The notes under the pieces were generated by a model. That model had not been told where the DNA came from. It did not search any database and saw only the letters and a list, made by a program, of their open reading frames with translations. The position numbers were made by a program, and so were the translations under genes. A stretch of DNA of 64,000 nt from Amoebophrya sp. A120. Lineage: Eukaryota; Protista; Dinoflagellata. Location: positions 2,972,158 through 3,036,157 of the forward strand of contig CAJINV010000013.1 in assembly GCA_905178155.1 (NCBI GenBank), given 5' to 3'. Below are positions 1-64,000 of the stretch, piece by piece (the stretch's first letter is position 1; each line of letters begins with the position of its first letter).

Positions 1-206
1 GCGTGTCATGCACTCCTGGAAAATCTGTGTTGCATGAGCAGCAAAACAGAGGCTTTCTTTGTCATGCAAAAACGCAATTTGTAATGCGTGCTAGGCATCA
101 GCAGACCTCTCAAAAACTTGTCATGCTTGGCTGCCATTGGAAGCGCTTCAATCATGCGCAATTCAGCATCTCAAGTTTCCAGACCCAGACATTTTTACAT
201 TTGATA
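1..206. mobile_element. Introner/MITE family A, right part only (truncated by window start)
   Basis: Ends TTCCAGACCCAGACATTTTTACATTTGATA at 206; CLC coding sequence resumes immediately after; internal sequence similar to 2058-2319 (inverted) and 5024-5272. Confidence 0.85.
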
Positions 207-3200
207 GCGCGGTCGGGGTGTTAATTTCCAGCATTTTTGTCGGCGTCGTGGTGTCCATGCTGGTGCCGGAGTGCAGCGGGGGCGGCACGATTTCCGTCCG
301 CGCGTGTATCGCGCTCGGGTCTTTCGTACCCGCGCACGTCGGACTGGCAAGATTTGCGCTGTCGGCGGTCTACATTGGGTTTGGCAATCCGCTCGGCGCG
401 GAGGCGCCGACGCTGCACATCTGCGCCGCGGTCAGTTGCTCGCTGTACTGGCTCTGTCAACAGTACCAGAAGATATCCGTCTACTTCCCGGCGGAGAACA
501 GAACCACGATGGTGATGTGTGATTTTGGAGGATGTGTGTAGAAGTCGTGTTTGGGTCTTGACGATGCTCTGCCTCGTGGTGCAGTCGTGTTGTGTCACGC
601 ACAAAAGTTTCATCCTGTGCATATGTGTATGAGTAGAGGATTTGGTCGTGAGTCGATTGTTCGCCGGTCCGAAATCTAAATCTTCCTTGTCGACAGGTTA
701 TCGTCGGCTGCACCTGCGGCCTCGCCGCAGCCTTTTCCGCCCCCATCGGCTCGATCCTGTATGCGATGGAGGAATTTCGGCACTCGCTCGGGGACAGCAA
801 CATGTACACCACTCTGATCACCACCGCGTCGCTTGTTGCCGTGGTTACCACGCAGTTAGTGGTCACGGGGAAGTTTTACGAAACGTGCGAGGGCGGCACG
901 AACGTCGGCAGGGGGAAGTGGGAGGTGTGCACCTGGTTGGCAGTGGCGACCCCGTTAGGGATTGCGGCAGGGTACGTCCCCTTACTCTTCACGAACTGTG
1001 TCCTGTCCCTCCGGTCGAGGTTGCGGAAATACGGGGTGATAAGGCAGATGGTGATCTCCGCCTTGACAACCACCCTGCTCGGAACCTTCTGCTACGAGGT
1101 CAGCCGGGCACTTTTGGTGGAGAAAGAGTTGTGTCCGAAGCAAAACCTCTGTGTGGACGCCGCGAGCAGTGGTGCCACAGCGTCGGCTTCGAGGGCGCTA
1201 CTAGCTGAAGATGAGCAAATAAGTACAGTAGGTACAACTTCATCCACGACGGCCGGGGAACTAGGTGCGGGTTTCTCATCAGCATCTTCCTCAAGATCAT
1301 CGCTAAGCACAATAATAGTACCCGGAAATACAGATACAACTCCCGCGTCTGGCGGCCTGTCCGCATTCTTTTCGTCCACAATAGGAACGATGAGTTCCTC
1401 ATTTTCGTCCTCAACATTTGAGAGGAGGACGCAGCAGAGCATAATAGAAGACACCGCGAGGCAGAGAATCGGTGGGATAGCAGCAGCAGGTGGCGATGAT
1501 GCAAAAATATCAGCTTCGACGAATGTATTTCCTCCAGAAACATCAGCAGGAGCTGCTCCTGCTCCGAGGAGACAACTCGCGTCGTTTGTGCCGTCTTGCG
1601 GCTGGGATGGGGTATGGGGTGCGGGTGGCAGGACGATGGAAGAAATCTTGAAACCAAGGCCGAGGCTAGACAACGACAGGTCGCTGATAATGCCCTTGTT
1701 GATTTGCTGCATCATGTTCTTTGCCTGCAAATTTATTGCGTGCCTCACGGCGGTGGCTTGCGGAGGTATAATTTAATTTGTTCACATTTTGACGACCTTA
1801 TGAAAGCAGAAGCACAGTACTTCAGCGACAATTCTCTTATCATGTCGACGCGGGCGACAAGGCAACAGAGCTGGTGCAGTGCGAGAACACGACCACCGTA
1901 GATGTAAGATACATAAAAATCACAAATAAAGGTAGCGGTGGCGTCTTTGCCCCCGCCCTGGTTCTCGGCGCCGGACTTGGCGGCGCCTACGGTGGGCTCC
2001 TCTCGTACCTTTTCGACGACGCCTACTACCAGCTGCTTTTCGTACCGGTCGGGATGGTATGGATTGCAAAAATGTCTGGGTCTGGAAGATTCTGAGACTT
2101 GTCATGCATGTTTTGCATTGGCCATGATGTCCGTGATGCATGCCCTAGCATCACAGATTTTTTGAGGGCTTCGCGATGCCTATTCCGCATGACAAATGCC
2201 CTCTCCGCGTAGCAAAAATTGCGTTCCCTTTGCTGCTCATGCAATACAGATTTTTTTAGAATCCAAGTGCAGCATCACAGGTTGCCTTCTTCCAGACCCA
2301 GACATTTTTACATTTGGTAGATGGCTGCGGTGTTTTCCGCCATGATCCGACTCCCCCTCACGTCGGTGGTCATTGTGTTCGAGATGACCATATCAAAAGG
2401 AAAAATGCCCCCTCCCCATATCGGAAGCGAAATTTGTGATGCTGTATTTGAGTACACAAATCGACTTGTATTGCTAGAAGGCCAGGAGACGCAGCTGCGG
2501 CCTGAATTGCAGGCAATTTGTCATGCTGTTTCCCACTTCCAGCTGCCTCCTGTCATGCTGGAGATGCAAGGCTTTCCCAAAGCTTGCCAGCACTACAGTC
2601 CGCATCTTTTGCCTTCTAGCATCACAAAGCTGATTTGTGACCACAAATCTGCATCACAGATTTCTGTTTTGATATGGGGAGGGGGCATTTTTCATTGTAA
2701 TAGACCAGCGTCGCGGGGTCGCAGGACTCGTCGAAATATCCTGAGTAAAAACGCCCCCATACCACAGTCAAGATTGATGGGAAATCTGCTAGACAAATCG
2801 GCCAACTTTGGTTGATTCGCATGAAGACAAGCGTGGCCTCGTAGTGTAATCCTGTTCAGCTAGTTCAGCAGCATCACAGGCCCAGCATATCATGCTATTT
2901 CTAGCGTCACAAATCCCAAGACACGACTAGAAAAGACTTCTCATGGGGCTTCGCATGAGAAACTTTTTTGGCATGCAGATTTGCATGACAGCTTCGGGGG
3001 TGGGATGGCTTTACTCAGAATACGAAACTGGTTTTCCCCATGTTGCTCTGTTCGATGATTTCCTACTTCGTCAACTCCGAGGTCCAACCCTCGACCATGT
3101 GGGATCATATGCCTTGCACGCGTTTCGGACTAGGATGGATTTTTGCATCACAGCTTTCAATATAGAAGAAAAACGGAATTGATTCGTATTGGGGGGAAAA

Positions 3201-5310
3201 GGTAGGAATAGGAAAGCAGAATTCTCTGCTTTTTTGCATTGATTATGTACTGCTGTGCTGCAAGTGATTCATCTTTCTAGTTCGATACTTTCGAGTCTAA
3301 GGCATAGAGCAGCTGATGGAGCAGGATAACATCGACCCGAAGTCTCTTCAGCAGTTTCTGAACGCCGCTTTGGAGAACCCCATCATGAGCCGCAGGTCGA
3401 TCCGGGCGAGCATTTGCAGTGTGAGTGCTGCGAACAACGACAACTTTCTTGGAGGAGGTAACAATGGCAATTTCGCCACGACCAACATGAACAATGCAGC
3501 GAACATGGGTTCATCTGCTGTCTCGGGTAACAACGAAATTGGAAATCAATTTGGGGCAGCCGCGACGAGGGTAAGCATGAGCCGAGGCATGGGCGGGGGC
3601 TTCAATCTGGAACGGTTCTCAATGCGAGGTATACTTTTTCATGTTTGTTTTCGCAAGGTCGTGGAGTCGTGTATCCATGCCGTGAAATAAGCAGATCATT
3701 GGAACACCGGGACCAGAAAGTCATTCTTCTCCTCAAACCGATCACTATCACTAATCTATCAGCATCTCTCGCCGCACCGATGAAGCGCGAGAACTCGGCC
3801 TTGAGTAGTGCGAGTTCGATTCTCCCTCGGAACTTCAGCAGCGCGAATGAGGGCGATATGACGGGAGGAATGCATCAGGACATGGTTAGAGAGGCACTGA
3901 AAAGGATTATTGCGAATCAGGTACTGAATACTATCCCTTGATGTTCTTGAGGTCGACATTAAGTTTGTCCTTGTCTCACACCAGCATGACGAGCATGAAG
4001 TTTTGATGTGCTACAGCTTCATCTAGAAGTACAGTATTTCGTGCTGCAACATCAAGGCCCACTGCGCCAAAAATAATTAAACCTGCCTTCCCAGCCCGCA
4101 GCCGCCCGCGACCAGCAAACGCTGCGGATGACGACTGGCGCGACGCCGAACGTTGCGGGGCAGAAACGGATGTCCCTGTCCAAGCCAAACGGAAACTACC
4201 AGGTCAAACAGAGCCGGTCCCAGGGGCCCTCGCGGCGCGAGTCAGCCGTGGCGTTCGTGCAGCAGAGGCTGAGCATGTATCCTGAGTAAAAACGTACCCA
4301 CGACAGAGTCAGGATGGGGATTTTGCAACACAAACCTAGGAGTTTTGTGAGTCACGCGTGACAAGTTGCACTCTGCAGTGTAGTGCAGGTTAGCAAGTGC
4401 AGCCGCATCACAGATTCATCTGCTCATCCTGTTCACAGCATCACAAATTCCAAAACACTATTGGAAATGGCTCTCATGGGGATGCGCATTACAAGTCTTC
4501 CTGTCTTTGCAAATCTGCATTACAACTCTGGCGTGGGTACGTTTTTACTCAGGATAGCATGGCCTTCGGCGCAACGTCTTCGAGCAGCGGTGCGAATAAT
4601 GGCGACGTGTCGCCGACCCAACAAGTGGACGCGATTCTGCAAAACGCGGGGCTGGTGAAGCAGCACAGCGTCACGGGGGCGATGGTTCCTCCGGGTGTAT
4701 CCTTCCTGGGCGGGGGAGGTGGCCCGGACCACCAGCAACGGGTGAGCGCCAACGGCAATTTGCCCCCGGCCTCTCCCCGAGACACGCTCACCAACGGGCA
4801 CAGCCAAACGCACATCAACTTTGAGGCGTCCATATGCATTGCAAAAGTATCGTACTCGTATAAATGCATTACAAATTTCCTCAGCGTGAGAAATAAAATT
4901 TGTAATGCGGATTTGCCTTAACAAGATGACTTGTAATGCATGACTGCAATACGAGCGCGATACTTTTGCACAGGATAGTCCACGACGAGTGCGATGCCTA
5001 TGAAATCCGTGTCCCACGCGAGCTATCAAATGCAAAAATGTCTGGGTCTGGAAGAACAACTTGTGATGCGCATTTCAGAACACAGGAAAATCTCTAATGC
5101 ATAGGCAGCAAAAGTTACCCACTATCTGTCACCAAAGTGGGGGGTTTGTCATGCGGATTCGGCATTGCGGAAGCTTCTCGAAACCTGTGATGGGAGAGCT
5201 TCCATGCCAGACCTTCTGTGTCATGCAAAAACAGCATGAGTCTTCCAGACCCAGACACTTTTACAGTTGATACGAGCCGGGAGTCGCGGACTGGCTCGTT
5301 TCGGTCCTGA
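207..5310 (+). CDS. CLC-family chloride channel/antiporter, multi-exon, 5' end outside window
   Basis: Spliced translation gives CLC motifs PECSGGGTI, GNPLGAEAPT, GLAAAFSAPIGSILYAMEE, GGVFAPAL, GMAAVFSAMIRLPLTSVVIVFEMT, LVFPMLLCSMISYFV. GT-AG introns at 512-696, 1766-1931, 3629-3762, 3921-4094 plus 8 inverted-repeat insertions. Stop TGA at 5308-5310. Confidence 0.88.
2058..2319. mobile_element. Introner/MITE family A, TSD GATGG
   Basis: About 30-bp TIR TATGGATTGCAAAAATGTCTGGGTCTGGAA / TTCCAGACCCAGACATTTTTACATTTGGTA; GATGG at 2053-2057 and 2320-2324; removal restores VGMAAVF. Confidence 0.93.
2391..2702. mobile_element. Introner/MITE family C, TSD GACCA
   Basis: TIR core GAAAAATGCCCCCTCCCCATATC / GATATGGGGAGGGGGCATTTTTC; GACCA on both sides; internal sequence closely matches 63209-63524; removal restores FEMTSVAG. 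Confidence 0.93.
2737..3022. mobile_element. Introner/MITE family D, TSD CGAAA
   Basis: TATCCTGAGTAAA ... TTTACTCAGAATA; CGAAA at 2732-2736 and 3023-3027; removal restores SKLVFPMLL. Confidence 0.9.
3108..3306. mobile_element. Aged introner, 8-bp TIR, imperfect TSD GATCA/GAGCA
   Basis: TATGCCTT ... AAGGCATA; removal of element plus 5 nt joins MW(D/E)QLMEQDN in frame. Confidence 0.75.
4278..4556. mobile_element. Introner/MITE family D, TSD GCATG
   Basis: Perfect 25-bp TIR TATCCTGAGTAAAAACGTACCCACG; GCATG on both sides; frame LSMAFGAT restored. Confidence 0.93.
4833..4977. mobile_element. Introner/MITE family E, TSD GTCCA
   Basis: TIR core TGCAAAAGTATCG..CTCGTAT; GTCCA at 4828-4832 and 4978-4982; frame EASTTSAM restored. 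Confidence 0.9.
5024..5272. mobile_element. Introner/MITE family A, TSD CGAGC
   Basis: Family A TIRs; CGAGC at 5019-5023 and 5273-5277. Confidence 0.92.
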
Positions 5311-6776: not shown

Positions 6777-9700
6777 ATGGGTTGCTGTTCGTCCGCCATG
6801 CTTGGGGGCAAGGACGCCCTCAGTCTGCCGAAACGAACCAACAGCATGTACATGTACGACGAAAACTACGAAAAGCGGGACCAGGGTTCGTACACGCCGG
6901 CCAATTTTGACCCGAACAAAGCCAACAATTTAACCAAGAAAAAGGACAAAATTCTCATCTCCTGCGAAAAGTCCGCGCTCGTGCACGTATAATTTGCGGG
7001 TTTTTTTGTTGAAAAAAAATCATCCGACCTCTAATCATGAGTTATTACATCGAAGTAATAGTTGTACAGCCATCCTAGCATTGCGTGGGAAGAAATGTGT
7101 GAAGATTTTTTGCAATGAAAATTTTTCTTCGCCCAGAAGTACAACGACACACGCGATCCGAGTGAGACTTTTAAAAACGTACCATTTCTACTACTGATTT
7201 TACAGGTCCTGAAAACCGGGGTACTGCTGGAAGAATACCTGATCCGGAACAACGTCCGCGGGAAGCAAATCATAATTTCCTGCGTCGACGTGTCCGCGAA
7301 AGAGCCGAAGGACAGCAAGTACTACGACTACCGATGGCGCTGCAGCTCCTTCCGGTTCTTCGTCGAATCAGACGTGATCGCCTACATTCCCGTCGTCACG
7401 GACCTATCAAATGCAAAAATGTCTGGGTCTGGAAGAATGCAACTGGTCATGCTAAATCTGAAGCATGCAAAAATCTGTGTTGCATGATTACCACAAGTCG
7501 CCCAGTTTTGACCAAGTCGGGGGGGGAGTTTCTCATGCAGGATAGGCATGAGAGAGATGGCACAGAATCTGTCATGCTAGGCCCTGCATTGCAGACCTCA
7601 TGGGTCATGGAAAAGCTGCATGACAAATCGCGCATGCTTCCAGACCCAGACATTTTTGCATTTGATAGGACCGCTGGCTGAGCAAAAAGGCGACCCACTT
7701 CGAGCTCGCCTGGATATCCGAGGCGAAGATGCTCTGGCAGGCGGCGCACCTCGGCCAGGACAGTCACGACGGGGAAGATTTCGGCGATTTCGGTTCCAAC
7801 CTGTTCCCGGTCGCGATTTTGTCCCTCGCGTTGGACATCCAGGACGACGAGACGAAGGGACTGCAAAAGAAGACGAAGAAAAACAACAATAATAATCACG
7901 ACAATTCGCAAACCATTTCGAACAAAAACACCAAGGCATCCGGCGGTCGCACGGTTGGGGACGATTTGGAGAGGCGGAAGATCCTCGAGCGGTCCTCGGG
8001 CTACAACCACAACCTGCTCGTGTTGTCCTCGATCACGCAAAAGTGGGTGCGGCAGGACAAATCGAAGAGACAGCTGGGCGTCGCCGGGTTGAACCAGTTC
8101 AAGGATCCGCGATTCGTCATTTCCGGGAAGTTCACGGTGAAGACCATCGATCCGTTAGGCCGGGCGGAGAAGCCGGCCGGGAAAAACTCCGAGGAGAACA
8201 AATCGAACGACCCGGACATGTTCGCGCGGGAATTGTCGCACCACCTGCTGTTCTCCGCGTTCAAACAGGTCAGGTTAGAAAAGGTCGCGGCCGACGGGGG
8301 CGAGTACGAGCGGCAGTCGATCAAGTACCGGGCGGAAGCGGTGCGGAACGCGCTCGGGAAAAACTGCTCCGTCGACGAGGCGCACAGCGAGCCGGAGGAG
8401 GTGCTCACGTCCGCGCGAAGCCGAGGGGTGGTGAACTTCGACCTCGGGGGGGCTGGGGAGGATGAGAATGGAGAGAAAATGAAGCCGGGGTCGTCGAAAA
8501 TGCCGAAAAGGTCTGGGTCGCCGAAAATCCCCAGCATAAAGAAGAACAACTCGCTGTCAAAAGTCGTCGGCGTCGGGATCAATACGCCGAACCACGCGGG
8601 AAAAGGGATTTGCTCCGCGTCCGTGATCGGCCCCCTGGACACGGTTTCGGAGCCGAGTCCCAGAACGGATAGGTCGGTCGTTGGGGAGTTGTCGAGCTCG
8701 AGGAATAAGACGGCTGGTGTAGGGGAGAATGGTGCAGGAGGAACATCAGGAAATATTTCTAATCAGGACAAGAACCTGTTGAACTTCGAAACGCACTCGA
8801 AAATCACAGAGGAGGAGACTGCGACAACGATCACGGAGGAGGTCGCCGTGCCGGCGAACATGCCCCATTTGTACTTGAATTTCGCGGAGGCGAAGAAGCG
8901 CGGGCCGGGGAACAACAGTCCGCGCCTCAGCAAATCGCAGATTCGGGCGAGCCGCGCGGGCTCGAAGGCGAAGAGCACGGCGAGCGGGGAGGGAATGAAT
9001 GCGCAGGAAAAGGAGCAAGAACAGTCGCTGTCTGGGACGGACGCGGTGCTGAAAAGGATGTCGGAACAGATGGAGAGGGAAAAGCAGGAAAATAACGCCG
9101 TCGTTGTTGGTACACCGCCAGACCAAACAGGCACAGTAGACGAGAAAACCAATCTTAAGCCAGAGGCAGAACAAGTAGATGATCCAGCGGACCTCCAGCC
9201 CGGCAATTCGCCCCGCGACCCGAGTAAAGAAGTTCCGTTGGAGCTCAACCTCGACACCCCAGCACAAACCTCCAACCCGGCGCACTCGACCACGACGGAA
9301 CTCCAACTGGCGAAGTCGCAAAACCGCCGCCCCACGCCGCTCCGCTCCCCGCTGGGGCAGTTCGCACCGGGGGATAGACTGGTGATCCACTCGCTGGAGT
9401 CGAACCCGGAGTACAACGGAAATTTCGTGAAAGTCCTCTCTGTTCAGTCCGCCGACATGATCGAAGTTGTGGTGCCGACGCAGGGCAATGAGCGGCTGTT
9501 CATCCCACCCGCGAACCTCGCTCCGTTACAGGACCCGAAGGCGATGTTCCCCGCCTTAACGCCCTCCGCGCACGGGTCGTTGAGCCCCGTGAGCCGGCAC
9601 GTGTCCAGCCCGACGATGCGGGGATTTGGGTCCGCGCTTGACAACAAACTGTTCGCCATGAACCCGGATAGTGAGGACGACGATGACGATTTCTTCCTGG

Positions 9701-12700
9701 AGGAGTCGGATTCGGATATAGACATTCCAGAGCAATTACTCACCGAGGCGATCAATCGGGATAGATTGTACGCGGAGCGATTCGACGAGAACGGGGAGGA
9801 GGTAAAGAAGGTTCCCGATGGAAATATAAATAAAGGGATGAACAACCAGCAAAATCATCTGGAAAAGACGATGGAGGATTTTCTCCCGCCTATCTACTGC
9901 CCCATAGACATCGAGAAGCTGGCACAGCAGCTGCCGACGAATTTCGGTACACCCGTGCATTTGGGACAGAGTAAGGGAAAGAAGAAGTCTCTCGGCTCGA
10001 CCTTGTTGGAAGAGGGAGAGGAAGATGATAATAATATCCAGGTCGTTGTAGCGCAGCCACCGGGCATGCCGGTGATTCCCAAGAAGAAACTACCCGAAAC
10101 AGTACTATCGCCGGAAGTGGAAAAGGAAAAAGAGGAGGAAAAGGTTCGAGAACAGAACGCAACAAGTAAATCCAAGTACAACACTTCCGTGGCGCCGACA
10201 GCAAATAACGAGGAAGACGACGACCCGGGAGTGTCGGATCTCGACCTTTCCAACACCGCCTTAGACCCCGGGCTGGCGGATATCGACACCGGGAACTTGA
10301 TGCGGGAGCACTACCTCCGGAAGGGTTTGGAGGCAGTGTACGGAGAGAATAACGTGCCGCGGGAGCTTATCGCAAGAAAAAAGTGTTACAGTTACACATT
10401 GTGTTGCAAGAGCGGCAACACAGACAACCTTTCTCATGCAGGAAATGCTTCGGAGCCTCGTTTCCTTCCTGTTTTCCCTTATGATCTTCGCATTACAAGT
10501 TTTCTCTGCCAGGCAGAGAAAATTTGTGATGCCGAAACTCCAACAAGTGTGTAACTGTAACACTTTTTTCTCATGATAGAGCTGATCCAGGCGAGTTTGA
10601 ATGACACGAGAATGCAGCGCGGGAAGTTCTCTGTCCCCGGAGGAGCGAAGACGAACATCGGGGGACACCAGACAGCTGCAGACAGCACCATCCGGTCCGC
10701 GTCCACCGTGAACGAAAATAATGCCGAATTGAAACAGACCGGGGCGTCGTTGCCGACGAACAGTAAGTCTATGAACACCGCTTCTGGGCAGCAAGTCGCG
10801 CCGGAGGACTTCGGGTTACCGAGTCTGGCGAAGATGCAGACCACGGAGCACGCGAAGCGGCCGGTGCCGTTTCCGTTGAACCTAGGGCAAGAGACCAAGC
10901 AGGAGACGAAGAAGATGGACATGAGCCAGGTGGTGGTTTTGTCGGACACGGTCGGGAACGGGCTAGTCGGCTTGCTCGGCGCGGTCAACGAGGAAAACGG
11001 GAATTTGCAGCCAAATTTGTCCTCAGCCACCTCTCCGGTGAACGAAGAAAACGAAAACTCCGATCCGGACATCGAAGACACGATTTTGAAGCCGCTGTCC
11101 ACCGAGGAAGTCGCGAAGAGGAAGGAACTCGCTTTGCAAACGAACAAAAACCTCTTCGCGCCCATTGGGGGTGGGAAGGTCGGAACTGGCAAAACTTCGC
11201 CGCCGCAGCCGCCCAGTCCGCCGGACGAAAGCAAAGGAGTACAGCAGGAGCAAGCAACTATGCCTGGGCCGAGACTCTCCTCCGGTCGCATGGACGAGAG
11301 CCGGTCTTCGTCGAAATCCGGGTCGCAGTCCTTCACGCCGCCCAAGGCCCCGGCCGGAATCAGACCGCCGTCGTTGGGCGCGCAACATGGAGCGACGTCT
11401 CGACCGGGCAGCGCGTCTATGGACGAGCAAACCTCTTTTTCCACGCAGCAACAGAGAACTTCTACAGGATCTTCCAAGCCGAGGTCCGTCCCCTTCGCGC
11501 TCGACATGCACAACGTGAACGACCCGCGCGCGCAGTTCCTGGAGACCATCGTGGGATTGGTCGTTCGGCCGCCGATCAAGGACATGGGGTCGGAGGACCA
11601 CCGGTTCCCGTCTTCCGTCATCGACGAGACCATCGAGGACAGCAGCAGCAAGAAGCGGCACTTCTACTCCGCCTTTATCGACGGCTCCATCACCCGGGAG
11701 ATCCCGAAGCAGTTCCGCGGCAAGAACTTCCAGTGGCACTTCTTGGCGGAGCTGCGGAACTCCTTTCTGAACAAAAACATCGTCGTAAGAGAGAACGAAA
11801 AAGACACGAAGCCGGACGAGCCGGACCGGGACAAGGAGGAAACGTTCGCGACGCAGAAAATTGTCGAGAATCTGCATGAATTACTGGAAAAGGACAACAC
11901 GAAGATGGTCTGCTACAGCACGGACATTTCCAAGCGGGAGAAGTACAAGGCGCTCGAGGAGGTGGAGAAGATTTGCCAAACGTACAAAACGCTGAAAAAC
12001 TCTTTGGCCAAGCACCGCGCGGACGAGCTGGCCGGGTACTTTGGCTACGACTGGCACCCGGATAACAAGGCGAATTTGTTACTCTACTCCGAGTACATCG
12101 ACGGGGGGACGGTCCATGACCGAATTCAGCTGAAAAGACTGGCGAACCGAAAGGAGATCATGCGGAACGAGCTCGCATTTTCGAAGTTGACCAGCGACCA
12201 GCAAGCCATGTACGGTTTGAGCGAGAAGGAAGCGCACTTTATCCTGATCCGGGTGCTGCGGGGCTTGGAGCAGCTGCACTACCTCGACATTTGCCACGGT
12301 GCGCTGCGGGCGTCCAACGTCGGAATCAATCGGCGGAGTGGCCGCGTGCAGCTGTTGGACTGGGGGATGTTTGATCTGCGGAAGTACTGCAACGACGAGG
12401 GGAAAACCTGGAAGGCGAAAAATTGTCGGTGGATCGCGCCGGAGTGCCTGCCTGATTTCGGGCCGGGAAGGGGAAGCAACTTCTCGAAGGGAAGCGACAT
12501 CTGGAGCTTGGGATGCTTGGTAAAAATGATTTTTAAATTTCCTGTTTGTTTCAGTTTTGGTCATACTACGTGGCATGAAAAACATCACTCAGATCTATCG
12601 CCATGCTGCGTGTAATAGCATCAAGACATAAAGATTTTGTGCTACACTTGTTCCACGCATTTTTTTTTTACCAACAAGAAACTCACACAAACAGCTCCTT

Positions 12701-16531: not shown

Positions 16532-17719
16532 GCTGTGTTTTGTTTTTTGCAAGAACTGAGGGGGTCTAGAAAAAAAAAATAAAAAATCAACCGACAGAGA
16601 AAAGTCCAACCCGCACAGAGAAAACTTCGCAACACATAAAAAACTTCCGTCGTGCAGAGAAAACTTCCCGCGGTGAACATGGTCGCAGAACTAACCTGCA
16701 CGCGAGACACTGGCGCAGCTTCTGCACGCCTACCCTCGCGCGGTCGGCCGGCGTGCGTTTTATTGTTTTTGGAAAAACTCCGCGCCGAGCGGCATCCGTG
16801 GCTGCTTTGCGGCTTCAATACGTAGGCGCGGAGTTCCTTCACGCCTTTGAATGAAGCTAGTCCGTGTGGTGCTGTGGAAGGGTTGGCCGAGGCGGCGCAC
16901 GTGCATCCACAGGGCCGCTAGGCTTCGCCGGGGTGTGCAACCACAAAAGCGCGCGGCGGCGCCTTCAGGCTATTGGGGGCGCGCGCCGTGCTGGCGTGTG
17001 GCAGCGAGCGCGCAGGCCCGCGCGTGCGCAAATTCCTGGCGGGCTGCGTGTGTCCTGCGTGCAGGGCCGGGACATCGCCGCTATTGGCCGAAAAAATTAG
17101 TCCGCGCGCTTCGCGCGCGGTTTCGGCGGGTAACTTTTTCTGCTGGGGCCCGCCCTCCGTCCGCCGGGCCGGCCTACCCGCCCCGCCTTGGCTTTTCTTG
17201 CCGATAGAAAAATCAAACACGAAAAAGCCCCCCGGATTCCCATTTGGGGCGCTTCTCGTTCTCGTCTGGGTTGCAAAAGTTTTTTTAGGTTCGCGCGCTT
17301 TTTGTTGCTACGGCCCCGCCCGGGAAGTGGCGGACGGCAAAAACTGTCTGGGAACCGGATTCGGAGCCGGAAGCCGAGAAAAAACTCCGCGCGCGCTGCG
17401 CGCGCGAGTTAATATGGTTTCTGGTTGCTTAGGGGTAGGGCAGGCCCGTTTGTGCTAGGGCGGAGCTTTTCAAGAATGCCGGGCCCGGTACAGTGTTTCT
17501 CCTTCGCGCTCCTGTTGGGTTTTGCAATTTTGCCGGCGCGCGCCGCGCGCCTGTCTAATCCTTTCCAGGATTAGAAGCAATTTGCGTTGTCGCGCATGTC
17601 CCATGTCCATGCGCGCTCCCACCCACGCCCTTCAAAGGAAGCAAAAGCGGCTGCCTGTGTCGCCGTAGGCCATGCGAAATAATTCTTCGCGCGCGCTGCG
17701 CGCGCGATGCGGGTACCCT

Positions 17720-18065
17720 AATGCCGGCCGAGGCATTTCTACCTGGATTCCGGGCGAGGATGCCGGCTCGGGCCTTTCTGCCTACCTTGATTCTCTCTCA
17801 GTAGAAATGCTGGGCCTTGCATTTCTGCCTTGATTCCCAGTAGAAATGCCGGCTGAGGTGGTATTTCTGCCTGGATTCCCTGTAGGAATGCCAGACCTCC
17901 TGGTATTTCTGCTTCGATTTCCTGTAGGAATGCCAGGCCTGCTGGCATTTCTACTTAAATTTCCTGTAGGGATCTTCGATCTCTGGCACGAATGCCATGG
18001 CGCTTGCGCTTCTAGCTTGATTTCCAGTAGAATTGCCAGCCCTCCTGGCGTTTCTACCTACCTGG
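17720..18065. repeat. About 42-bp degenerate tandem repeat with internal hairpin, abutting assembly gap
   Basis: Units such as CTGTAGGAATGCCAGGCCTGCTGGCATTTCTACTTAAATTTC, about 8 copies. Confidence 0.8.
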
Positions 18066-18522
18066 NNNNNNNNNNNNNNNNNNNNNNNNNNNNNNNNNNN
18101 NNNNNNNNNNNNNNNNNNNNNNNNNNNNNNNNNNNNNNNNNNNNNNNNNNNNNNNNNNNNNNNNNNNNNNNNNNNNNNNNNNNNNNNNNNNNNNNNNNNN
18201 NNNNNNNNNNNNNNNNNNNNNNNNNNNNNNNNNNNNNNNNNNNNNNNNNNNNNNNNNNNNNNNNNNNNNNNNNNNNNNNNNNNNNNNNNNNNNNNNNNNN
18301 NNNNNNNNNNNNNNNNNNNNNNNNNNNNNNNNNNNNNNNNNNNNNNNNNNNNNNNNNNNNNNNNNNNNNNNNNNNNNNNNNNNNNNNNNNNNNNNNNNNN
18401 NNNNNNNNNNNNNNNNNNNNNNNNNNNNNNNNNNNNNNNNNNNNNNNNNNNNNNNNNNNNNNNNNNNNNNNNNNNNNNNNNNNNNNNNNNNNNNNNNNNN
18501 NNNNNNNNNNNNNNNNNNNNNN
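18066..18522. other. Assembly gap (N run)
   Basis: Continuous Ns. Confidence 0.99.
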
Positions 18523-19935: not shown

Positions 19936-20174
19936 GTAGGGCGCGGAGGGCGACGAGCTTGGAATGGGATTGTGGACAATTACTTCTTTAGACTTTTTTT
20001 GTTCTTGTTGAGTTTGCATATTACGGATCCTAGTGATGCGGATAGATTGAAAAGTACAGCAAGGTCGACTTTGTTGACCTTAGGGCTGTTTCAGATGATC
20101 CACCAGTTCGACTGTTAGTTCGACTTCTTTTGACGTTTCCTTGTAAAATTCTCCACTTTGTGATATGAACGTGC

Positions 20175-42232: not shown

Positions 42233-42794
42233 CTCAGAAAAAAGGAATACATACCGTAAAAATAGAACAACGGAGAGTACTCGCGCTCGCCACTTCTGCA
42301 AAAGAGGTTGGAATAAAGGACTAAAATTGTACTATAAGCGCGGATAAAAATGGCCGAGAAAAGGCAAGATCGAAGTCGAAGTTGATTTGGAAACGCCGGT
42401 TCTTTGCGCTCAAAACGGTCTTGACCGATCTCGTTCTCGAGCACCAGGGCTTCGAGCACCAGGTTATTCTTTTCTCGTGTTCTGCACGTTATTTATCTGG
42501 CTTCGTGGTCGTCGCGCTGCTCCTTGCCCCTTCTACCACTAGTCGTGCTTGCACTTGTTTGCTTCCCTAGCTTGATGCGGTTCATCTTGGCTTATTGCGT
42601 CCACGTTGTTTCGTGATTACAGCTTCGTTCTGGATGGTAGTTCCGTGTTTGGCTATCGAACTTCTTCAGGAAAGCGAAGCTTAAGACTACCGATCCATTT
42701 TTGTGCTACTAACTCGGACTCTCAGTAGATGCAGCATTACAGCTTTTGTACACACTTCGATTAATGCGCAGCAGCATCACAAATGTCAGAAACC

Positions 42795-45700
42795 ATGAAC
42801 AACGACTCGACTCCGTCCTCTTCCTCCCGACCGCAGCGTCGGGTTCGGAACCTCTTGGCGAGCTATCTACGCATCGCAAAGGTGATCATTTTCTATGCAG
42901 CATATGCATGACAGGCGACGGCGGATTAATCAGAGTTTGTCATGCAAAAAATGGATTCCGCTAATGCTCTGTCATGCTCGAAGTTGCACGTAGAAAATTC
43001 ACTTTTTTCCCCTCGATACTCCTACGCGATCGACGATTTTCCCAGCAGTCCGGAGAAGGAACGAGAAGCTGGAGCAGCGGCCGGGGACTACAATACCAAA
43101 ACAGCCTTGTCCGGCGGCACGGCGGGTTCCTCAGCTTCCTCCAGCCAGTACAGAAATCACGATGCGAACAATCATCGCAATGGCAAACCGTCCCAAAATC
43201 CGTTTGACGAACGTGCGTTCGATGGCCATAACTTTTCCGCGGAAGCCTGGTTCCAGAGATTGATCGCGATCTCGACGTCGAATGCCGGCCGAGGAAGTAA
43301 TAGTTACACAGGCGGGACGAGCAACACCAAGATCAGTACGAGAGGTCAACAACAGCAAAACTCTTCCTCGAAGGAACTGCTGCAACTTTCGAACAAGCTC
43401 ACGTCGAAAATTCAGCAATTGAATGCCGACATCCAGACGCACGTCTACGAGAACTATTCGAAGTTCATCCGAGCGACAGATACTATCCACGCGATGAGCA
43501 ATGTGATCAGCAGTCGGCTGATTCCGGTGGATTTGGAAGACCTGAAAAAGTCGGTGAACCGAATCAGCCTGAAACAGGAGAAAACGCTGTCTGCGGGCAT
43601 TCTGGTCGTGAATGATAAAGGAGGAGTAGACCTCCAAGCCGCAACTACGCGAATGCAGCGCAACACTACTACGACTAGCGGAGAACAACAAGTCAAAAAC
43701 CCTGGTTCAAGAACAGCGTCTCGCGACGAGGATGGAGGTGAGTGGCCTGATGTATCCAACCAGAATAACCCCTCGTTGGAGCAGCAGGCGGAGCAGATTT
43801 CGGCACTACTGCTGAAGCAGGAGAAACTGGAGAAGGTTCGCATGTTGCTGAAAGTGCCACTGGTGCTGCAGGAGTGTTTGCAGCAGCGAAACTACGGGTA
43901 CTGTGCCGAAGTGTATTGCAAGACCATTCCGATCATGCGCAAGCGCCCGGATTTGTTTCGGGAAAAGATCCAGCAAATTGACAAGATCATGCTGGACTTG
44001 TGCGGGAAGCTGGAAGCGCGACTCGGCGAGACGGCGGCGACGACGAAAGAAGCCATCAACTGCGCGCAAACGTTGATCGAACTGGGCCAGGAGAAGCAGC
44101 TGGTGGCCGACAAATTTTTACTCGGGCGAAAAAACATGCTGGAGCTCGCCGTGAAGCAGGCCTGCGCGACGACTAGTACAACCGGTGCCGCAGTTTCAAG
44201 TGCTGTCGCGGCGCAGCAAGAACCGCAGGACGAGTATCAGCGGGAAAAATCCCCCCTCCCCATATTGAACGGGTATGTTTCCGAAAATTTGTGTTGCGGA
44301 TTTGCGGCCACAAGTCACGTTCGTATTGCAAGAAGAAAGGTCAAGGGCAGAGGCTTCCGCCCCGCTATGGAAGCGATTTGTCATGCTGTTTGGCCTAAAG
44401 GGGAGCCGTTTGCCATGCTGAACCACTAGACCCATACGCCCCTCCCTAGCCTGGGGACCTGGCCGCAGTGCCTCTCTGCAATACAAAGCTGATTGGTGTA
44501 GTACGCAAATCCAGCATCAGAAACTACGTTTTTATATGGGGAGGGGGGATGTTTCCATTCGATAACGAGGAGCATTTTCGGTTGTCGGTGTCAAAGCTCC
44601 TGGATCGGTTCTGTCCGCAGCTGAAGGAAGTTTTGCAGGAGTTCTGTCACTGTTTCGACTACCCGGCATTCGCCGGCAGTGTGCGGGAGATGGTGTTGGC
44701 GGTGTTGCGACTGCTCCACGAGCAGGTCCTGCAGCTGCTCGCGGCAAACAGCATCATCAACCCAAGCACTGTAAAGACGTGTATGCAGGAACTGATCACG
44801 CTATTGGAGGTGGATGTGCTCGCTCTGACGCTCGCGACGAAAACAGGAGACAGCACAAAAGACTTGAAAAGCCTCGCGGAGGCCGTGTTCAAACAGCAAG
44901 TGAAGAAGCAGTTTGTCACGGACATTTCCCTGCTCTCCGTCGCGAAAACGTTCGAGCAAGCGGGGAAGCAAATGACCACACAGCTGGTGGCATTGCACGA
45001 GGAGCTTGTGGGCGGGAAAAGCGGAGCTGGTGCAGTTTCTAACGAGGAAGCGCTTGAGAAAATCGGTAAAACCTATAAGTATCTTCACTGTTCCTTTTCC
45101 GTATCGGAATGGTAATTGCTATTGCTTCTATGCATGTAGGAGGTTCCAGATCCAGCGAAACGGGAAACATGCATTGGAAATAAAACAACATTGATACCAG
45201 GGGCCTGCGAGCACGCGATTCTTCTCGACGGGTGTTTGTCGCTGACCGACTGCCAGCCGCTGCTTGACCTGGTCGACGGCTCGAGCACTGCGAGTCTCTT
45301 GGTAGACGCTTTGGTGAAGCACGTGAAGGAATTTTTCTTGACTTTTGGCGAAGTTTGCAAGCTGTTGTGCCGGGACAAGGGCGAGAAGACACAGTCGGAC
45401 CTTACCGTTTTGCCGGTACAGAAACTGTTTGGCGTTGCCTGTTCCTTGCTCTTTTTCAATTTATTGTCATTTCGGACCAGAAGAAGCATGCATACATCAT
45501 GAGATCAGTTCTATTTGCGCGCTGCGCAATAAATGCAGCAACAGAATGAACCTATCACCAATTCACAGCCGACCGAAATCTCTCGGATTCGGGCCCTTTC
45601 CTGGAATTCCATGTTTGCGCTCGGCCTGGTCCGCCTTGGCCGCCACTTGGAGACGCGGGGGGTGACTAAAGTTTTCAACGTGGGCGCCGATTTGTTCGGC

Positions 45701-47079: not shown

Positions 47080-49878
47080 ATGTTGCGAACACTAAACGCG
47101 CAGCAGCATCAGCAGCAGTTTTGCGCCGCAATAGCGCGCAGCTCGCAAGCCGTATTATCGAGTTCCGGTGCGGCATCTTCCAGCTCTTCCGCTTCCGCGC
47201 GTGCGTTCGCCACGACACGCGTAATCCAAGCCGGGATGAAAAGAACGACTCTAGTCCCTTTCATGTCTGGTCGCTCGCACAGGTGTGGGCACCGGATAAT
47301 ATCAGCGGGAACGAAATCCTCCAGAAGCGCGAAGACGCAGCGCGGACTGTTGGCCGCGCCAGGACAGCTACTTTTCAGGAATGATGTGATGAGTTCTTCC
47401 CACAACCAAATCACAAATTCACTCTTCAATCGCGCGTTTAGCACCCAGCTTCCGTCTGCAGCCACGACACCCAATCCCGCAGCGACGGAAAAAGAGAGGT
47501 TGGTCATTTTAGGTTCTGGTTGGGCCGGCTACCGTTTGCTGCAAGATGTGGACCACGAGAAGTATCAGGTCAGCGTGGTGTCGCCCAGAAACCACTTTTT
47601 GTTTACGCCACTCTTGGCGTCCGCCTCGGTTGGGGGCTCGGACATCAGCAGTATTTGCCACCCTGTGCGGCCACTAGTGGCGGAAAAGGTATAGTAAATT
47701 TACTGTGGGTGCCATGGAATTCAATGCATCACAAAGTCTCGTTCCCTCCAGCGTGTCACTCCTGCATGACAAACTAATCACACGACCGGAAAATAATACG
47801 AAATAGCTCTGCATAACCATAAGTCCACAACATACAACAGGACGGGCGCTTTTACGAAGCCAGGGCGATCTCGCTGGATAAGAAGAAGAAGATGATTCAG
47901 TGCCAAACTTTGGATGGCCGGGAGTTTCCACTTGCCTACGACAAGTTGGTGATCAGCATTGGCTTCCAGGCAAACGACTTTGGGATCAAAGACTTAGGTA
48001 TGAACATAGATCAACAACCTAGGCAAGTCAATTAAGGTTAGGTGACCATAGAATCACATGACACACGACGTCGTCGTTTCCCATGCCAAGAACGCACTGA
48101 ACAAAGAGCGCACGACTGCTGATGAAAGTTGAAACCAAAACCCCACCCCTTCCCTACACAGACCAACACGCCTTTTTCATGAAGGAGACCGCGGACGCGA
48201 AGCGCGTGCACGATCACATCCTGCGTTCCTTCGAAGAAGCCTCTTTCATTCACATGCTGGACGGGGATGAGAATGTCTCGCTGGAAGAGGAGGAGCAGAT
48301 TCGCGAGGTGCTGTCCTTTGTCGTCGTGGGCGGCGGCCCCACCGGGACGGAATTTTGCGGCGAGCTCACCGACTTTTTGAAACGGGACATTGCCGTGCAG
48401 TACCCGCATTTGTCTCCCTACTGGTCCGTTCACTTGATCGACGCTCTACCGCAAATCCTGACCCCGTTTCAGAACGCGGAGCTGCAGGCACACGCGCTGG
48501 AGCACTTGCGAGAGAAGCAGGGCGTGCAAGTACACCTGTCGCAGTTTGTGGACAAGATTGAGCACCACCGGATCTACTTGAAATCCGGCATGTCGTTTCC
48601 CTTTTCCACGCTTATTACAGTGAAAAATGCCCCCCCACCCCTAAAATTGGAAAAATTTGTGATGCGAAGTTTCCAAATGAAAACTTTTTGTCATGCATGA
48701 AATGAGTTTAAATCTTTCTGCTGCAGAATCCAGGCGTACATGGTATATCGCATCAGTTGCATGACAAGCGCCGCTCTTGCTGGGGTCTTTTGCAATACGA
48801 ATCTTTGCCATTCACGGTTGGAAACCTGTGATGCTGATAGATGCAAGAGGGCGAATGTTTCATTTGGAAAGGTTTGCAATACAAATGCTCCCAAGTTCGG
48901 GGGTGGGGGCATTTTTCATTTTGATAACGCTCGTTTGGTGTGCGGGGATCAAGCCGCTGCCCTTCGTGGCGGGCTTGGACTTGGCGAAGAACGCCAAGGG
49001 AACGCAACTGTTGACGGACGCCCAGTTGCGGGTAAAGGGCGAGGAGAAGAACGGGATCTACGCGCTGGGGGATTGTGCGTCGATTGAGGTAAGTACTGAA
49101 AAACACTAAGAATGTTTCAGAAAGGATTTGCTTTTTTCATGTGGGGAACGAGCATGTGCATGACTGAATACACCTGGTGTCTTCATGCACGCCGGGAGTG
49201 TTACAGTCACTCTCACATAAGTGAGCAATTTCTTGAATCAACGGTATTCAAAAATGATTGTAAATTCGTTCTGGTCCTCCATCAATACAACACCAGACAA
49301 TGCCGATGCCGCAGACCGCGCAGATTGCGTCGCAGGAAGCTGCTTACTTGGCGAAAGCCTTGTCTCTGGACAGCCACGAGGTGCCCAACAATTTCGAGTT
49401 CAAGGACAAGGGCACCCTCGCCTACCTCGGTGGGACCAGCGCTCTGTACCGAGTGCCGTCGAATCTTCCGGTCCCCCATCTGCGCGGGCTGCTGGGCTGG
49501 TTCACGTGGCGGAGCGCCTACTGGAGCATGCAGCTGTCCATTCGAAACAAGTATAGTGCACAAGGAACTCTTGTTCTTTCCATTTGTAGTGTATTTTCTT
49601 GTTGATGCGATCATTGATTCTGTTGAACGGGACAACAGCACAATGTGCTTGTTTTGCAATGCAGAAATAACGCCATGAAAAGGTTTATGCTGGCTTGGAA
49701 CTGGATCTCCAACTACGTTTTCGGGCGGGATCTCACCCGCGTCGGCCGCCACTCTTCGCCGGTGGAGTTTCTGCTCGACCGAAAGGTATCCTCCGGGAAG
49801 AAAAAACGCAATCCCGCAAGGTCCGTGTCCCCCGAGGCCTCCAAAGCAGATCCCATTCCGGCCAGCAAGACCGCCTGA
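47080..49878 (+). CDS. Type II (alternative) NADH:quinone oxidoreductase, mitochondrial
   Basis: LVILGSGWAG, SPRNHFLFTPLL, VVGGGPTGTEFCGEL, LVWCAG, IYALGDCA, PQTAQIASQE, WRSAY, FGRD; Arg/Ser-rich presequence; four GT-AG introns plus one introner. Confidence 0.93.
48613..48926. mobile_element. Introner/MITE family C variant, TSD ACGCT
   Basis: TGAAAAATGCCCCC / GGGGGCATTTTTCA; ACGCT on both sides; removal restores the conserved STLVWCAGI. Confidence 0.92.
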
Positions 49879-52094: not shown

Positions 52095-54195
<2,101 letters not shown>

Positions 54196-55077: not shown

Positions 55078-58000
55078 ATGCTGGCGCCAGCCGTCGTTCT
55101 CTTTGTTTCGTGTGTTTCCGTGCAGGTTTGTTCTGCACCACCAGGCACGAAAGCTCGCGCATGCGCATCTCAGTCTAGCACCGAGGATGTTGAAGAGATC
55201 GATGCGGGAGAAAAATCGAACGGCCCACAATCACCAGCTTCGCAGCTCCAACTGCCCGCAGCTGCAGGGACCACAGCGCCCCCTAAAGAAGCAGAGGCTC
55301 TTCATGAAGAGGATTTTCAGCCCGCTGAAGAGTCTTCTTGGGCCTGGCTTTGGCCTCCGCGTTGGAATTTGTTCTCCGGATGGAGCCAGAAAAGCAGTTG
55401 TGGGCAACAAGCGAAGACTTCTTTCGATGAAGCATTTGTCCAACAATCTTCTGCGGCGACTTCGGATAGCGCAAGAACTCCGACATCACTGGGGCAAGAG
55501 CAGGATACCGTGGTTTGTAGTTCAATCCTACAACAACTCTCCCCGGCGGCCAGTGGCAGTACACGAGGTGTCGTGTCCTTCACTACGAGTCCGCGCGGCA
55601 CCGGCTCTCCAACGTGCCAGGACTTTGTCAGCAGCTCAACGGCAGCTGCGATTCTTGGTGTGAATCAGAACAGTCCCTATCCGGCTTGCGTTCGTGTGGT
55701 GAGCAAATTCTTGAACATTAAGAACTCAGAGCCGACCTCGCGTGTGAAGCAGCAGGCGTTGACTGCAGCGCTTAACTCCAAACGTTTAGAGTCTGGATCT
55801 GGCTCTGCACGGTCGCACACAGCAGACGAGGCAGTACTATCTGCTGGGAGACGAGCAGCAAGCCAGCACCAGCAGCCGTGTCTCAGCCAAGCGGAGCGGA
55901 TCTGTCGAGAGCTGAAGAAAGACGTCAATGTTGGTAAGGAAATGCAGCTGGTGGCACATCAAGAATGCACAAGAACCAGAGCAGATGACGACTCTCCTCC
56001 CTCAGTCCCAGCTTCGCCGCAAGCCACTCAAGCAGCAGATTCTGTAGCCTGCCAAGAGAACTACGCGGATCGCAACGAAAAAGAGCAGAAGCACGAAAGA
56101 GCCGGGTCGTCGTGGAAGATGCGCGACGTTTTCAATAGAAACTTCCGCCTGGTTTCCTTCGCAAACGCGCTGGGTGGCCGAAAACAAGCCACAACTTTTC
56201 CGCTAACCACGACAGCGTTGCCGACGTCCCGCTTGCAGGTGGGTAGGAACAGAGCAGCAGCACTGCCTGTTCCAAAAGACCAGCTCCACGCGACTTTGAA
56301 CCGGTTTGGCTGGGGCCACTTGGCGGAGGATCTGAAGTTCCTAAGCGACCAAGATCTCTACATGCTGCGGACGTTGGCGTACACTGGGAATGGTCGTAAG
56401 CGGACCAGGTCCAGCACTGCATCCTCGAGTACGAAGGAAAACCAAAAAGCAGGAACAAAGGAGGACGATCTTCTACCGGAAGAAGATGCATATGGCATCG
56501 AAGCTCTAAACCAATTCCAATCGGCGTCTTCCTCGTCTTCGAAGCAAAAGAGCCGCGAGCTTCAGGAGTTCAAATTCAAGGCTTTGAAACAGAAACTAGC
56601 CGGCAGCACGACTTCTGCTGCCGACGAGGGAACATCTACTACACTGACAGGTGCTAGTACAACAACTTTGCCGGCCAGGGATTCCTTCATATTGAGAAAC
56701 ATCCTCATGGCGGATTACTTTTTCGGCGGCTACAACGCGAATCAATTCAATTTTGACCAAAAACAATCCGTCGCGAGGGATTTGCGGACCAGTTTGTTTG
56801 AGGCGGGTGTGTTTTCGGACTCGCAAGTCGGGGATTTGGTGCAAACGCTGAAACGCAGGGCAGAAAATTACAAAACCGATTCCACTTCAAATTCTTGTGA
56901 CGCGGGTGCGTTTCCAGCAAGTGCGTCGTCGGCCCAAGAGCTTCTTTTGCAGACGAAGGAAAACTACTGCGGTGGCTCTGGCTCGTCTTGCTGCGTCGAC
57001 AAGGATCTGCGGGCCGGGTCGGTGCTCCGACTGGCGCCTTGCGAGCCCGACGGAGATGATCAGGAAGACCATCATGGAGGAGCAGGCACCGACGAATTGA
57101 AAGCCAGCAAGCAAACGAGTGCCGGGTCGTCTGTCGGAGGACAAGAGCTGCTTCATCTACCTGACAAGAATAACAAACTGACTTCTCGGAAATCACTCGG
57201 CTCTGACAGATCAAAATCCACCACGCTATCGACCTCTGCACCGAAATTGACAAACGCGGTCTCCCGGGTGTTCCAGTCCATGCAGAAGAATTTGAAGCAG
57301 CAACTGAAAAACAGTCGGAGCAACTTGAGTCTTATGCAAGAAAAAAACTGTGTAAGTGTAACTCTGTGATGCAGAAAGGGCAAAACAGTTACACTTGTCA
57401 TGCTGGACATGCATCAGAAGCTTTTTTCGTGCGTGTTTTCACGTATTAGCCGCGCATGACAGGCTCTCTCTGTCAGGCAGAGCAAATTTGTGATGCTATT
57501 CCTCCAAGAAAGTTACACTAACACAGTTTTTTTCTTGGATAAGTCTGTTCAGCGGCCTGACCTCGTCCAGTCGGAGGATATCAAGCGCAAAAATGTCTGG
57601 GTCTGGAAAAATGTAAACTTGTCATGCAGATTTTCCATGACCACCCATATGGTCTGGAATGCGGGACCTAGGATGGCAGACTCTGTGAGGTCTCTACCAT
57701 GCCCATCCTGCATGACAAACTCCCTCCCAACTTGGTCAAAAGTGGACAGCTTTTGGCACTCATGCAGCACAGATTTTTGCATGCTTCAGATTTACCATGC
57801 ACAGATTTTTGCATGCTTCAATTCAATTCAGATTTACCATGACAAGTTGCCACCTTCCAGACCCAGACATACTTGCAATCCATAGAGGAAGCGAAAGTGC
57901 AAGAAAGATAACTTGGAGAACGACCCGGAGTTTTTTCCCAGGAAGTTTCTGCCCAAGTTCGTCTTTCTCACCGACGTCGACGACACGTTCTGGTGCAGTA

Positions 58001-61943: not shown

Positions 61944-64000
61944 ATGACGGACAAACAGCACGGGTGCCCTCTTCCCGCCGCCGCGGAAGAACTTAACAAC
62001 ACGGCTTCCACCGACACCAGACCTCTGGGCCGCTGGTTCCGACTAGTGCCGAGCTACCCGATGTGGAGCACATCAAACAACGTCGCCGGAGGAACAAGAA
62101 GTGGGTTATTTACCCAGGTCCCGCCAAGAAGTAGTAGATCTTCATATCGTCGCTCTTTTGTCTACAACGAGGACATCAGCAGCAAACAGCACCGTCGAAA
62201 AAACTCGAGCAGTTCCAGCTCCTCCGGCCACAGTCCCAGCAAACACCACGACCAAGAATTCATCCATGTGATGCGCACGGCGCGCGAGCTGCCGACCGCG
62301 AGCGAGATTTTCGAAGCCCTAGACGCCAACGAGGACGGCACGGTGTCGGCAAAGGAGCTGGACAAAGCGCTGCGAAAAATGGGAAAGTCGGAACGCGTGC
62401 GGGAAATCTTGCTGCAGCGAGTCTTCAGCTACCAGGGGGCGAAAGTCTCTGAGAGTGGTGGGACGAGAAATAGAGATGAATCTAGCGGTGGTATGACTTC
62501 TGGTGCAGCTGCTGGTGGTTCTACCTCTCCATCTTCTGCAACAGCAACAACCTCACCGCGCCGCTGGAGCAACAGAAAGAGGTTTCCGGACGAGCAAGCG
62601 GCGGATCATCAAGGTGATTCTGAGCCCGACCCGCCACCACTCTCTAGAAGGTTACAGAGCATCGTGAACGGTGCGGGCCCTTCTGCCGCGAGAGGACAGC
62701 AACACACGCATAATAAAACCTCAGGACAAGTACATCAAAGCGCCAATCTGGACAAGGACCACCGGAAGACCACCCCGTTGCCGCCGTCAAACGTGACGTT
62801 TGCGGAGTTCGAGCGGTACTATGAATCGAGGAAAGCGGAACTAGAGCGGGTGTACCACATGCTGACCCACCAGAACAAGAATGATTTGAATTACCCGAGC
62901 AACGCGAAGTCCACTTTGGATACGAACAAAATGCGAAAATTGCTGCAACTGGTCGGGAAAAAAGTTTCCGACGAGGAGATCCGGCTGATTTTGCACATCG
63001 CGGAAACGGAGAACAACGGAGTTTTGACCTTCACGGAGTTTGCGCATTGCTGCTTCTTTGCGCCAGACGTGAACCCCGCGGCGGTCTTCGACAACTTCGA
63101 AAAGGACACGTTTTACGAGGCGGACGACAGCGCCAGTTCGGTGCCGAGTAGGCTGGATTACGGTCTGAACAAGGTGACGAAAACGGAGACAGGGGAAGTG
63201 CTTGACAATATCGTGAGGAAAAATCCCCCCCTCCCCATATCGGAAAGGAAATTTGTGATGCTGCATTTGCGTACACAAATTAATCAGTTTGTATTGGTAG
63301 AAGGTCAACAGACGCAGTTGCGGCCTTAACTGCAAGCAATTTTTCATGCTGTTCCCCATTTCGAGTTGCCTCCTGTCATGCTGAAGATGCAAGGCTTTCC
63401 CACACCGCCCAGCACTACAGTCCACTTCTTTTGCCTTCTAGCATGACAACATGACATGTAGTCGCAAATCATGCTACACAAATCCCCTCTTTGATATGGG
63501 GAGGGGGGATTTTTCATTTGGATAGACAATCAGAGCTACGACGAAGTGGTGCGGAAGCTGCTCTGCGGCATGGTGGCGGGAGCGACCTCGCGGACCGTGA
63601 CCGCGCCGATCGAGCGCGCGAAACTGATCATGCAAGCCACGCCGATGAGCACGACGGGCGCGCGGTCGACGTTTTTGGATACGTTCACGCGCATTTACCG
63701 ACACGGGACGCTGTACGACTACTTCCGCGGGAACGGGGCGAATTGCGTGAAGATCGCGCCGGAAACGGCGCTGAAATTTCTGTTGTTCGAGAACCTGAAG
63801 AAGCGGATCGCCCAGGAAACGGAAAACCCGACCACCGTCGAGCGGTTCTTCGCGGGCGGGCTGGCCGGGGCATTAGCCGGCGCGGCGATTTACCCACTGG
63901 AGATTTCCAAAACAAGATTGACCCTCGCGCCGCCGAAAAAGTACAATGGGGTGCTGCATTGTTTGCAGAAGGTGCTCTACCAGGAGGGGATTAAGAACGG
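61944..64000 (+). CDS. Calcium-binding mitochondrial carrier (SCaMC / ATP-Mg/Pi type), runs off window
   Basis: EF-hand DANEDGTVSAKE; after introner removal AGATSRTVTAPIERAK, RGNGANCVKIAPETALKF, IYPLEISKTRL. Confidence 0.9.
63209..63524. mobile_element. Introner/MITE family C, TSD GACAA
   Basis: Family C TIRs; GACAA on both sides; near-copy of 2391-2702; frame VLDNQSYD. Confidence 0.93.

Follow-up and report, generated by a model that had tools for sequence, protein, structure and literature searches.

A 64-kb stretch of Amoebophrya DNA (the window, 64,000 nucleotides) contains 20 introners, short non-coding elements with terminal inverted repeats (TIRs) that are located in exons in either orientation. 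A short word, YTGTVATGC in its 9-mer form, recurs inside these elements on both strands and in a lattice of 16- and 32-bp spacings. The lattice is likely an array of sites on double-stranded DNA at which the transposition machinery of the elements, either a transposase or a host cofactor of it, would bind. Introner elements are already known; the lattice of the internal word is new here.

YTGTVATGC has 66 exact matches on the two strands of the window, and GCATGACA is the commonest real 8-mer (39). Compartments were drawn by hand and expected counts are from Markov models. The 15 clean TIR elements (3,955 bp) have 46 matches, with 0.5–2.6 expected, and five decayed or partial elements (1,050 bp) have 10, with 0.1–0.6 expected. 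These 56 matches are far above the Markov expectation, and at least one copy is present in each of the 20 elements. A previous sequence-only reading had proposed the 9-mer as a mark of these inserts, and its enrichment over the composition background of the compartments is confirmed, as are all the sites it listed, three of which were one base off (4900, 30044 and 47726). The 26 GT-AG introns (4,318 bp) have five matches (0.4–0.5 expected), intergenic and untranslated-region (UTR) DNA (13,675 bp) also has five (0.65–0.8 expected), and three uncertain introns (646 bp) and the unrelated foldback and repeat regions of the window have none. The word was also said to be rare in exons. It is absent from 36,438 bp of exon, but with 1.1–1.3 matches expected this is a background level and not a depletion.

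The word reaches beyond the window. A scan of a related assembly with one TIR pattern gives at least 143 loci, 614 kb of non-redundant sequence in which the family of that TIR is over-sampled. Among the 143 loci listed and the window there are 361 elements with 5-bp duplications, and none in shuffled sequences. At least one exact copy of the word is present in 349 of the 361 elements and in 32 of 35 TIR groups, so that the claim of a motif in all TIR families is nearly, but not literally, true. After masking of profile matches in the loci listed, there are 1,569 copies within elements and 88 in the 471 kb outside. The family tests use thirteen families of 4–108 copies each and leave out 33 elements, of which 29 are singletons and four form two pairs. 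The top common 7-mers and 8-mers of the 13 consensus sequences are pieces of the complete word, YYTGTVWTGCD, which has an A-rich 5' flank. The inner TIR differs by family and does not hold the word.

The spacing of the word within the 13 consensuses is regular. Same-strand pairs 30–33 bp apart number 23 (null 3.1 ± 1.7), opposite-strand pairs 15–17 bp apart number 13 (null 3.3) and opposite-strand pairs 46–49 bp apart number 11 (null 3.1); none of 3,000 permutations reached these three counts. The reciprocal classes are empty, i.e., there are no same-strand pairs at 15–17 bp (2.9 in the null) and no opposite-strand pairs at 30–32 bp. Same-strand copies are typically 31–33 bp apart, and a 32-bp pair is present in 12 of the 13 families. 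The sites are also placed at fixed distances from the element ends in 18 of 26 family ends, as in a subterminal array: an inward site starts 31–34 bp from the end in six (at 32–33 bp) and 40–44 bp from it in 12, and at 35–39 bp in none of the 26. A general 10.5-bp phasing is not seen, as the spacing histogram has no peaks at 10–11 or 21 bp.

Deviation from the consensus is 7.2% of cells in the core of the word and 23.9% at other interior positions, where sites were defined on the consensus sequences, which somewhat favours conserved columns. Nearest-neighbour pairs show the same difference in three divergence bins (core and spacer, 4.9 and 9.6%, 7.1 and 17.7%, 11.6 and 32.8%). Changes from C at the fifth base of the 9-mer are to T in 22 of 152 cases, compared with 2,100 of 4,861 in the background, and 10 of 1,069 sites have a T there. 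Interiors masked for the word and TIRs are alike (z > 3) in just 9 of 78 family pairs, and the spacers of neighbouring units are 31% identical, with random pairs at 30%. The approximately threefold lower rate of change in the core, together with spacers that are mostly unrelated between families, implies that the word is selected and not just inherited. The sequence-only reading had named a shared ancestral backbone without selection as one finding that would overturn it, and this does not hold.

These tests largely refute a neutral origin of the word, in which every family would have inherited it as the remains of a 32-bp repeat, tandem or palindromic, in a common ancestor. The outer TIR features are common to all families, a few interiors are related (the nine pairs above) and some families have long decayed inverted arms, as such an origin would predict. 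However, the better-kept core and the avoided T are not, and likeness of the spacers has been lost while the word and its spacing persist; a neutral relic is very improbable.

Strand and folding properties bear on whether the word is read in DNA or in RNA. Gene direction was called by a codon model for 254 of the 361 elements. Copies of the word number 446 on the sense strand and 397 on the antisense strand, and families are inserted both ways (35 sense and 36 antisense insertions in the largest). The bias to the transcribed sense strand characteristic of an RNA splicing signal is thus not found. Sites are present on both strands in 193–216 of the 254 elements. The word could still be used in the transcript, by an RNA-binding splicing factor or as a local RNA hairpin, if copies on two strands serve either orientation; the frequency of two-strand elements, a small excess of sense-only over antisense-only elements (38 and 23 at the strictest cut) and interiors that fold better than plain shuffles are consistent with this. 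However, in 15–23 coding insertions every site is on the antisense strand. Inverted partners at the 16-bp spacing show no covariation, and complementarity at their degenerate bases is no greater than random (fifth base, 4 observed and 5.0 expected in 13 pairs). Against shuffles that keep the words in place, the five largest families show a weak excess of folding (z of -2.6 to +0.2), and their consensus folds have few or no interior helices. The excess persists in families with long decayed arms (z of -2.5 to -6.7), where compensatory changes are few. A universal interior RNA fold was not found across families, and an Rfam search gave no matches. Strand symmetry, the absence of covariation and the lack of a shared fold argue against an RNA signal or hairpin, which is improbable, and point to double-stranded DNA.

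How a binding array would work can be outlined from the geometry. DNA has about 10.5 bp per turn. The 32-bp spacing would be close to three turns, and the two end registers would be about one turn apart. Bound protomers would align on defined faces of the helix, build up by avidity and help to pair the two ends. Subterminal arrays work in this way in piggyBac-, Tn7- and hAT-type elements, and CACTA elements also have such arrays. The word would be under selection through the copies that later transpose and would decay after insertion, leaving relics in some GT-AG introns and in intergenic DNA. The sequence-only reading had inferred a common binding site for a transposase, a splicing factor or a chromatin protein. 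The binding site receives indirect support from the conserved core, the avoidance of T at the fifth base, the fixed spacing and the fixed end distance, but strand symmetry disfavours a strand-specific splicing factor.

Several observations weigh against an array that serves transposition. Older copies, those with mismatched target-site duplications (TSDs), gain 1.6 percentage points of change in the core and 4.6 in the spacers; the slower core gain is also expected under selection after insertion, and older source lineages confound the comparison. No transposase or integrase family is present among the 215 open reading frames (ORFs) scanned. The text of Farhat et al. 2021 (PMC7789003) likewise reported no transposase for the elements of Amoebophrya sp. 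A120. Spacer length is barely better kept in lattice pairs (0.37 and 0.53 deviants per 100 bp; 0.59 for 16-bp pairs), and the array runs through the whole short element rather than being confined to the ends. The windows of the spacing and end tests were picked after the histogram was seen, and the families are not fully independent. The word is common to elements with differing inner TIRs, of which it is no copy, and a host protein would account for this as well as a transposase. These data do not separate the two.

A host DNA-binding (chromatin) protein could also act after insertion, reading the lattice and marking the insert for cutting from the nascent RNA regardless of orientation. This is possible but considerably less probable than a transposition array. 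The word common to different inner TIRs, the slower core decay in older copies and the exact removal, with one TSD, of elements that have no GT-AG ends are all consistent with such a marker, as is the presence of at least one strong site in each of the 254 coding insertions for which a direction was called. Yet the core decays alike whether a copy is flanked by coding sequence (317 copies) or by non-coding sequence (17 copies) (7.6 and 8.6%, p = 0.52, a comparison of low power). In the 11 youngest pairs there is little protection of the core (2.95% change, with 4.04% in the spacers); TIR and core values range over 2.95–4.3%, with neither clearly better kept. Moreover, 22 of the 26 GT-AG introns are without the word. 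A more speculative proposal, also of low probability, combines the two roles: the 16/32-bp lattice would serve as a DNA barcode for a single protein, of the host or domesticated, which mobilises every family and also flags the elements for exact, orientation-independent removal from RNA. If true, this would explain how exons tolerate such introns, which have no GT-AG ends and number tens of thousands.

The elements that carry the array correspond to the A120-type introners described by Farhat et al. 2021, a known class; from the TIR signature, the A120 type is probable. The text of PMC7789003 describes non-canonical introns of about 240 nt in many families, with TIRs that start with TAT and end in an A run, and with short direct repeats at the borders (5 bp in the legend of Fig. 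S19). The window elements share the TAT TIR, the A run, the 5-bp repeats, the many families and the lack of a detected transposase. The same text, figures aside, describes terminal repeats only, with no internal word, lattice or end register, and states introner movement and introner splicing as open questions. An integrase-like, TIR-flanked introner family in A120 is described in the text of PMC12130899. The uL23m exon of the window has its best match in Amoebophrya sp. A25 (90% identity).

The window search for TA...TA segments with complementary ends and a flanking 5-bp duplication gave the 15 clean elements, with 0 and 0 in shuffles; the five others were placed by hand, for a total of 5.0 kb. 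In the larger set, 704 of 722 element ends start with TAT and A is dominant at TIR positions 11–15, after about seven variable bases. There are 363 pairs with a 5-bp TSD, 13 with 4 bp and two with 6 bp, and none in shuffles. The elements have the properties of miniature inverted-repeat transposable elements, i.e., a median length of 262 bp, multiple copies, TIRs and TSDs, and no coding capacity. No autonomous cognate element was found in the approximately 0.68 Mb examined, and two TIR patterns searched in viral contigs gave no matches. They have no GT-AG ends, yet transcript removal is indicated by an RNA-like contig and by ORF restoration. Deletion of each element and one duplication, along with the GT-AG introns, reopens the frames of element-bearing genes. 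The contig omits exactly positions 10363-10578 (element plus one TSD) and, judged by record offsets, 7400-7667 (element plus one TSD). Its RNA label is a guess, for which its omission of two GT-AG introns is counted as support. Two RNA read sets gave 3 and 2 reads, and introns across 16.6–64 kb are assigned by ORF restoration. In the hand gene models, frames stayed unrestored in element-free genes near 19.4 kb and 38.4 kb, and one gene begins, near 29.5 kb, in a different frame from that of its later portion.

Subterminal arrays of known systems, piggyBat/piggyBac (PMC11707139) and IS1202 and Tn7 (PMC10132070), have in the texts of these papers several short internal sites at set positions that are read on DNA. 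IS1202/Tn7-like elements and introners both have 5-bp duplications. In contrast, the internal site of IS1202 and Tn7 copies the inner TIR as described there, whereas the introner word does not and is common to different inner TIRs. Introners also differ from these systems in ends that are TAT and not TGT, in an alternating 16/32-bp lattice that runs through the element and in binding that is putative. The IS3EU and GingerRoot elements (PMC10045372, PMC6839031) are described in text as having TA...TA termini, no target sequence preference and usually a 6-bp TSD; the termini are shared, but with a TSD of 5 bp the introners are not counted as members. The term 'subterminal' is absent from the GingerRoot text. 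No description of the word was found in the literature searched, including the texts of PMC9860276 and PMC11453091, a search that did not cover figures and most datasets. The introner word array is a new form of the subterminal type, placed in a known introner system, and suggests that many seemingly separate families belong to a single superfamily that shares its machinery. A common, selected and geometrically arranged word can serve as bait for the protein, allows mutations to be aimed precisely and provides a pattern with which to search for autonomous elements and fossil introners.

The introners and the GT-AG introns of interest in the window are as follows, with the start and strand of each motif; all genes annotated there are on the plus strand.

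1-206: 3' part of an introner with a TCTGGGTCTGG-type TIR; motif 59+, 79+, 118+
2058-2319: introner in a CLC channel gene, 5-bp TSD; motif 2099+, 2148-, 2187-, 2272-
2391-2702: introner with a CCCCCTCCCCATAT-type TIR; motif 2434+, 2518+, 2550+, 2619-, 2651-
2737-3022: introner; motif 2871-, 2983-
3108-3306: decayed introner, TSD with one mismatch, frame restored on removal; motif 3145-
4278-4556: introner; motif 4405-, 4438-, 4486-, 4517-
4833-4977: introner; motif 4866-, 4900+, 4931+
5024-5272: introner; motif 5061+, 5146+
7405-7667: introner in a kinase gene, absence from the RNA-like contig inferred from record offsets; motif 7569+, 7618-
10368-10578: introner in a kinase gene, omitted from the RNA-like contig (10363-10578); motif 10490-, 10524+
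23079-23330: introner; motif 23120+, 23151+, 23184+, 23243+, 23290-
24033-24307, plus strand: GT-AG intron, decayed element-family profile match at 24120-24273 (E 5.6e-7), no exact motif
29915-30135: introner; motif 29995-, 30044+, 30095-
30600-30741, 30839-31027 and 31136-31263, plus strand: three predicted GT-AG introns of a hand gene model; motif 30656+, 30889-, 31173-
31382-31518: decayed introner; motif 31428-, 31457+
36221-36573: decayed introner, TSD with one mismatch; motif 36330-
42864-43018: decayed introner close to the start of a VPS51-like gene; motif 42906-, 42937+, 42969+
44235-44564: introner; motif 44378+
47689-47840, plus strand: GT-AG intron, weak profile match (E 0.0014); motif 47726-, 47764- (38 bp apart)
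48613-48926: introner; motif 48657+, 48688+, 48759-, 48826+
57333-57541: introner; motif 57364+, 57395+, 57454-, 57488+
57579-57884: introner; motif 57619+, 57710-
63209-63524: introner; motif 63253+, 63373+, 63441-

The sequence-only reading had noted the motif in one GT-AG intron, where it is indeed present at 47726- and 47764-, and had proposed it as a fossil tag for introns of element origin. GT-AG introns have five strong sites, with 0.6 ± 0.7 in shuffles, a modest enrichment. The proposal stands for a minority, four of the 26 introns having a strong copy and one more (24033-24307) the decayed family match, but most canonical introns are unmarked. The word is a useful fossil tag where present. 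Among the 88 copies outside profile matches, six of nine close pairs are on the same strand at 31–34 bp, as relics would be.

Near-full-length elements of the loci and the window are coding-flanked in 317 cases, non-coding-flanked in 17 and ambiguous in 76, where about one third of the non-element DNA of the window is non-coding and the loci were chosen for holding an element. In the family alignments, compensatory changes from copy to copy are frequent in the TIR pairs (for example, 54 cells in a single family), so the two ends change together. A link between the motif and the breakpoints of secondary insertions was considered and rejected: the motif footprint makes up 46% of the interior but holds just 14 of the 38 insertion breakpoints and 7 of the 18 deletion breakpoints. 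Two independent A-tailed inserts share one insertion point in the largest family (L065:11024-11995 and L065:15926-16421), one with a 19-bp duplication; these look like retro-insertions into introners. A 1.1-kb TIR element (L015:505-1608) with its word array on the left has a foreign interior of about 800 bp that contains short CCTCT/GAGAGG repeats, some about 11 bp apart; the element has no Pfam match.

At 42734-42790 in the window, two copies of the word are a short way upstream of an AG that precedes a start codon by a few bases; they may be a relic in a 5' intron or in a trans-splicing outron. A 1.35-kb foldback at 20126-21561 has long imperfect inverted arms and a flanking direct repeat of about 37 bp; the word is absent from it and its 306-aa ORF has no Pfam match. 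Positions 16532-18521 are GC-rich, repeat-like DNA with short tandem units that adjoins a gap of N.

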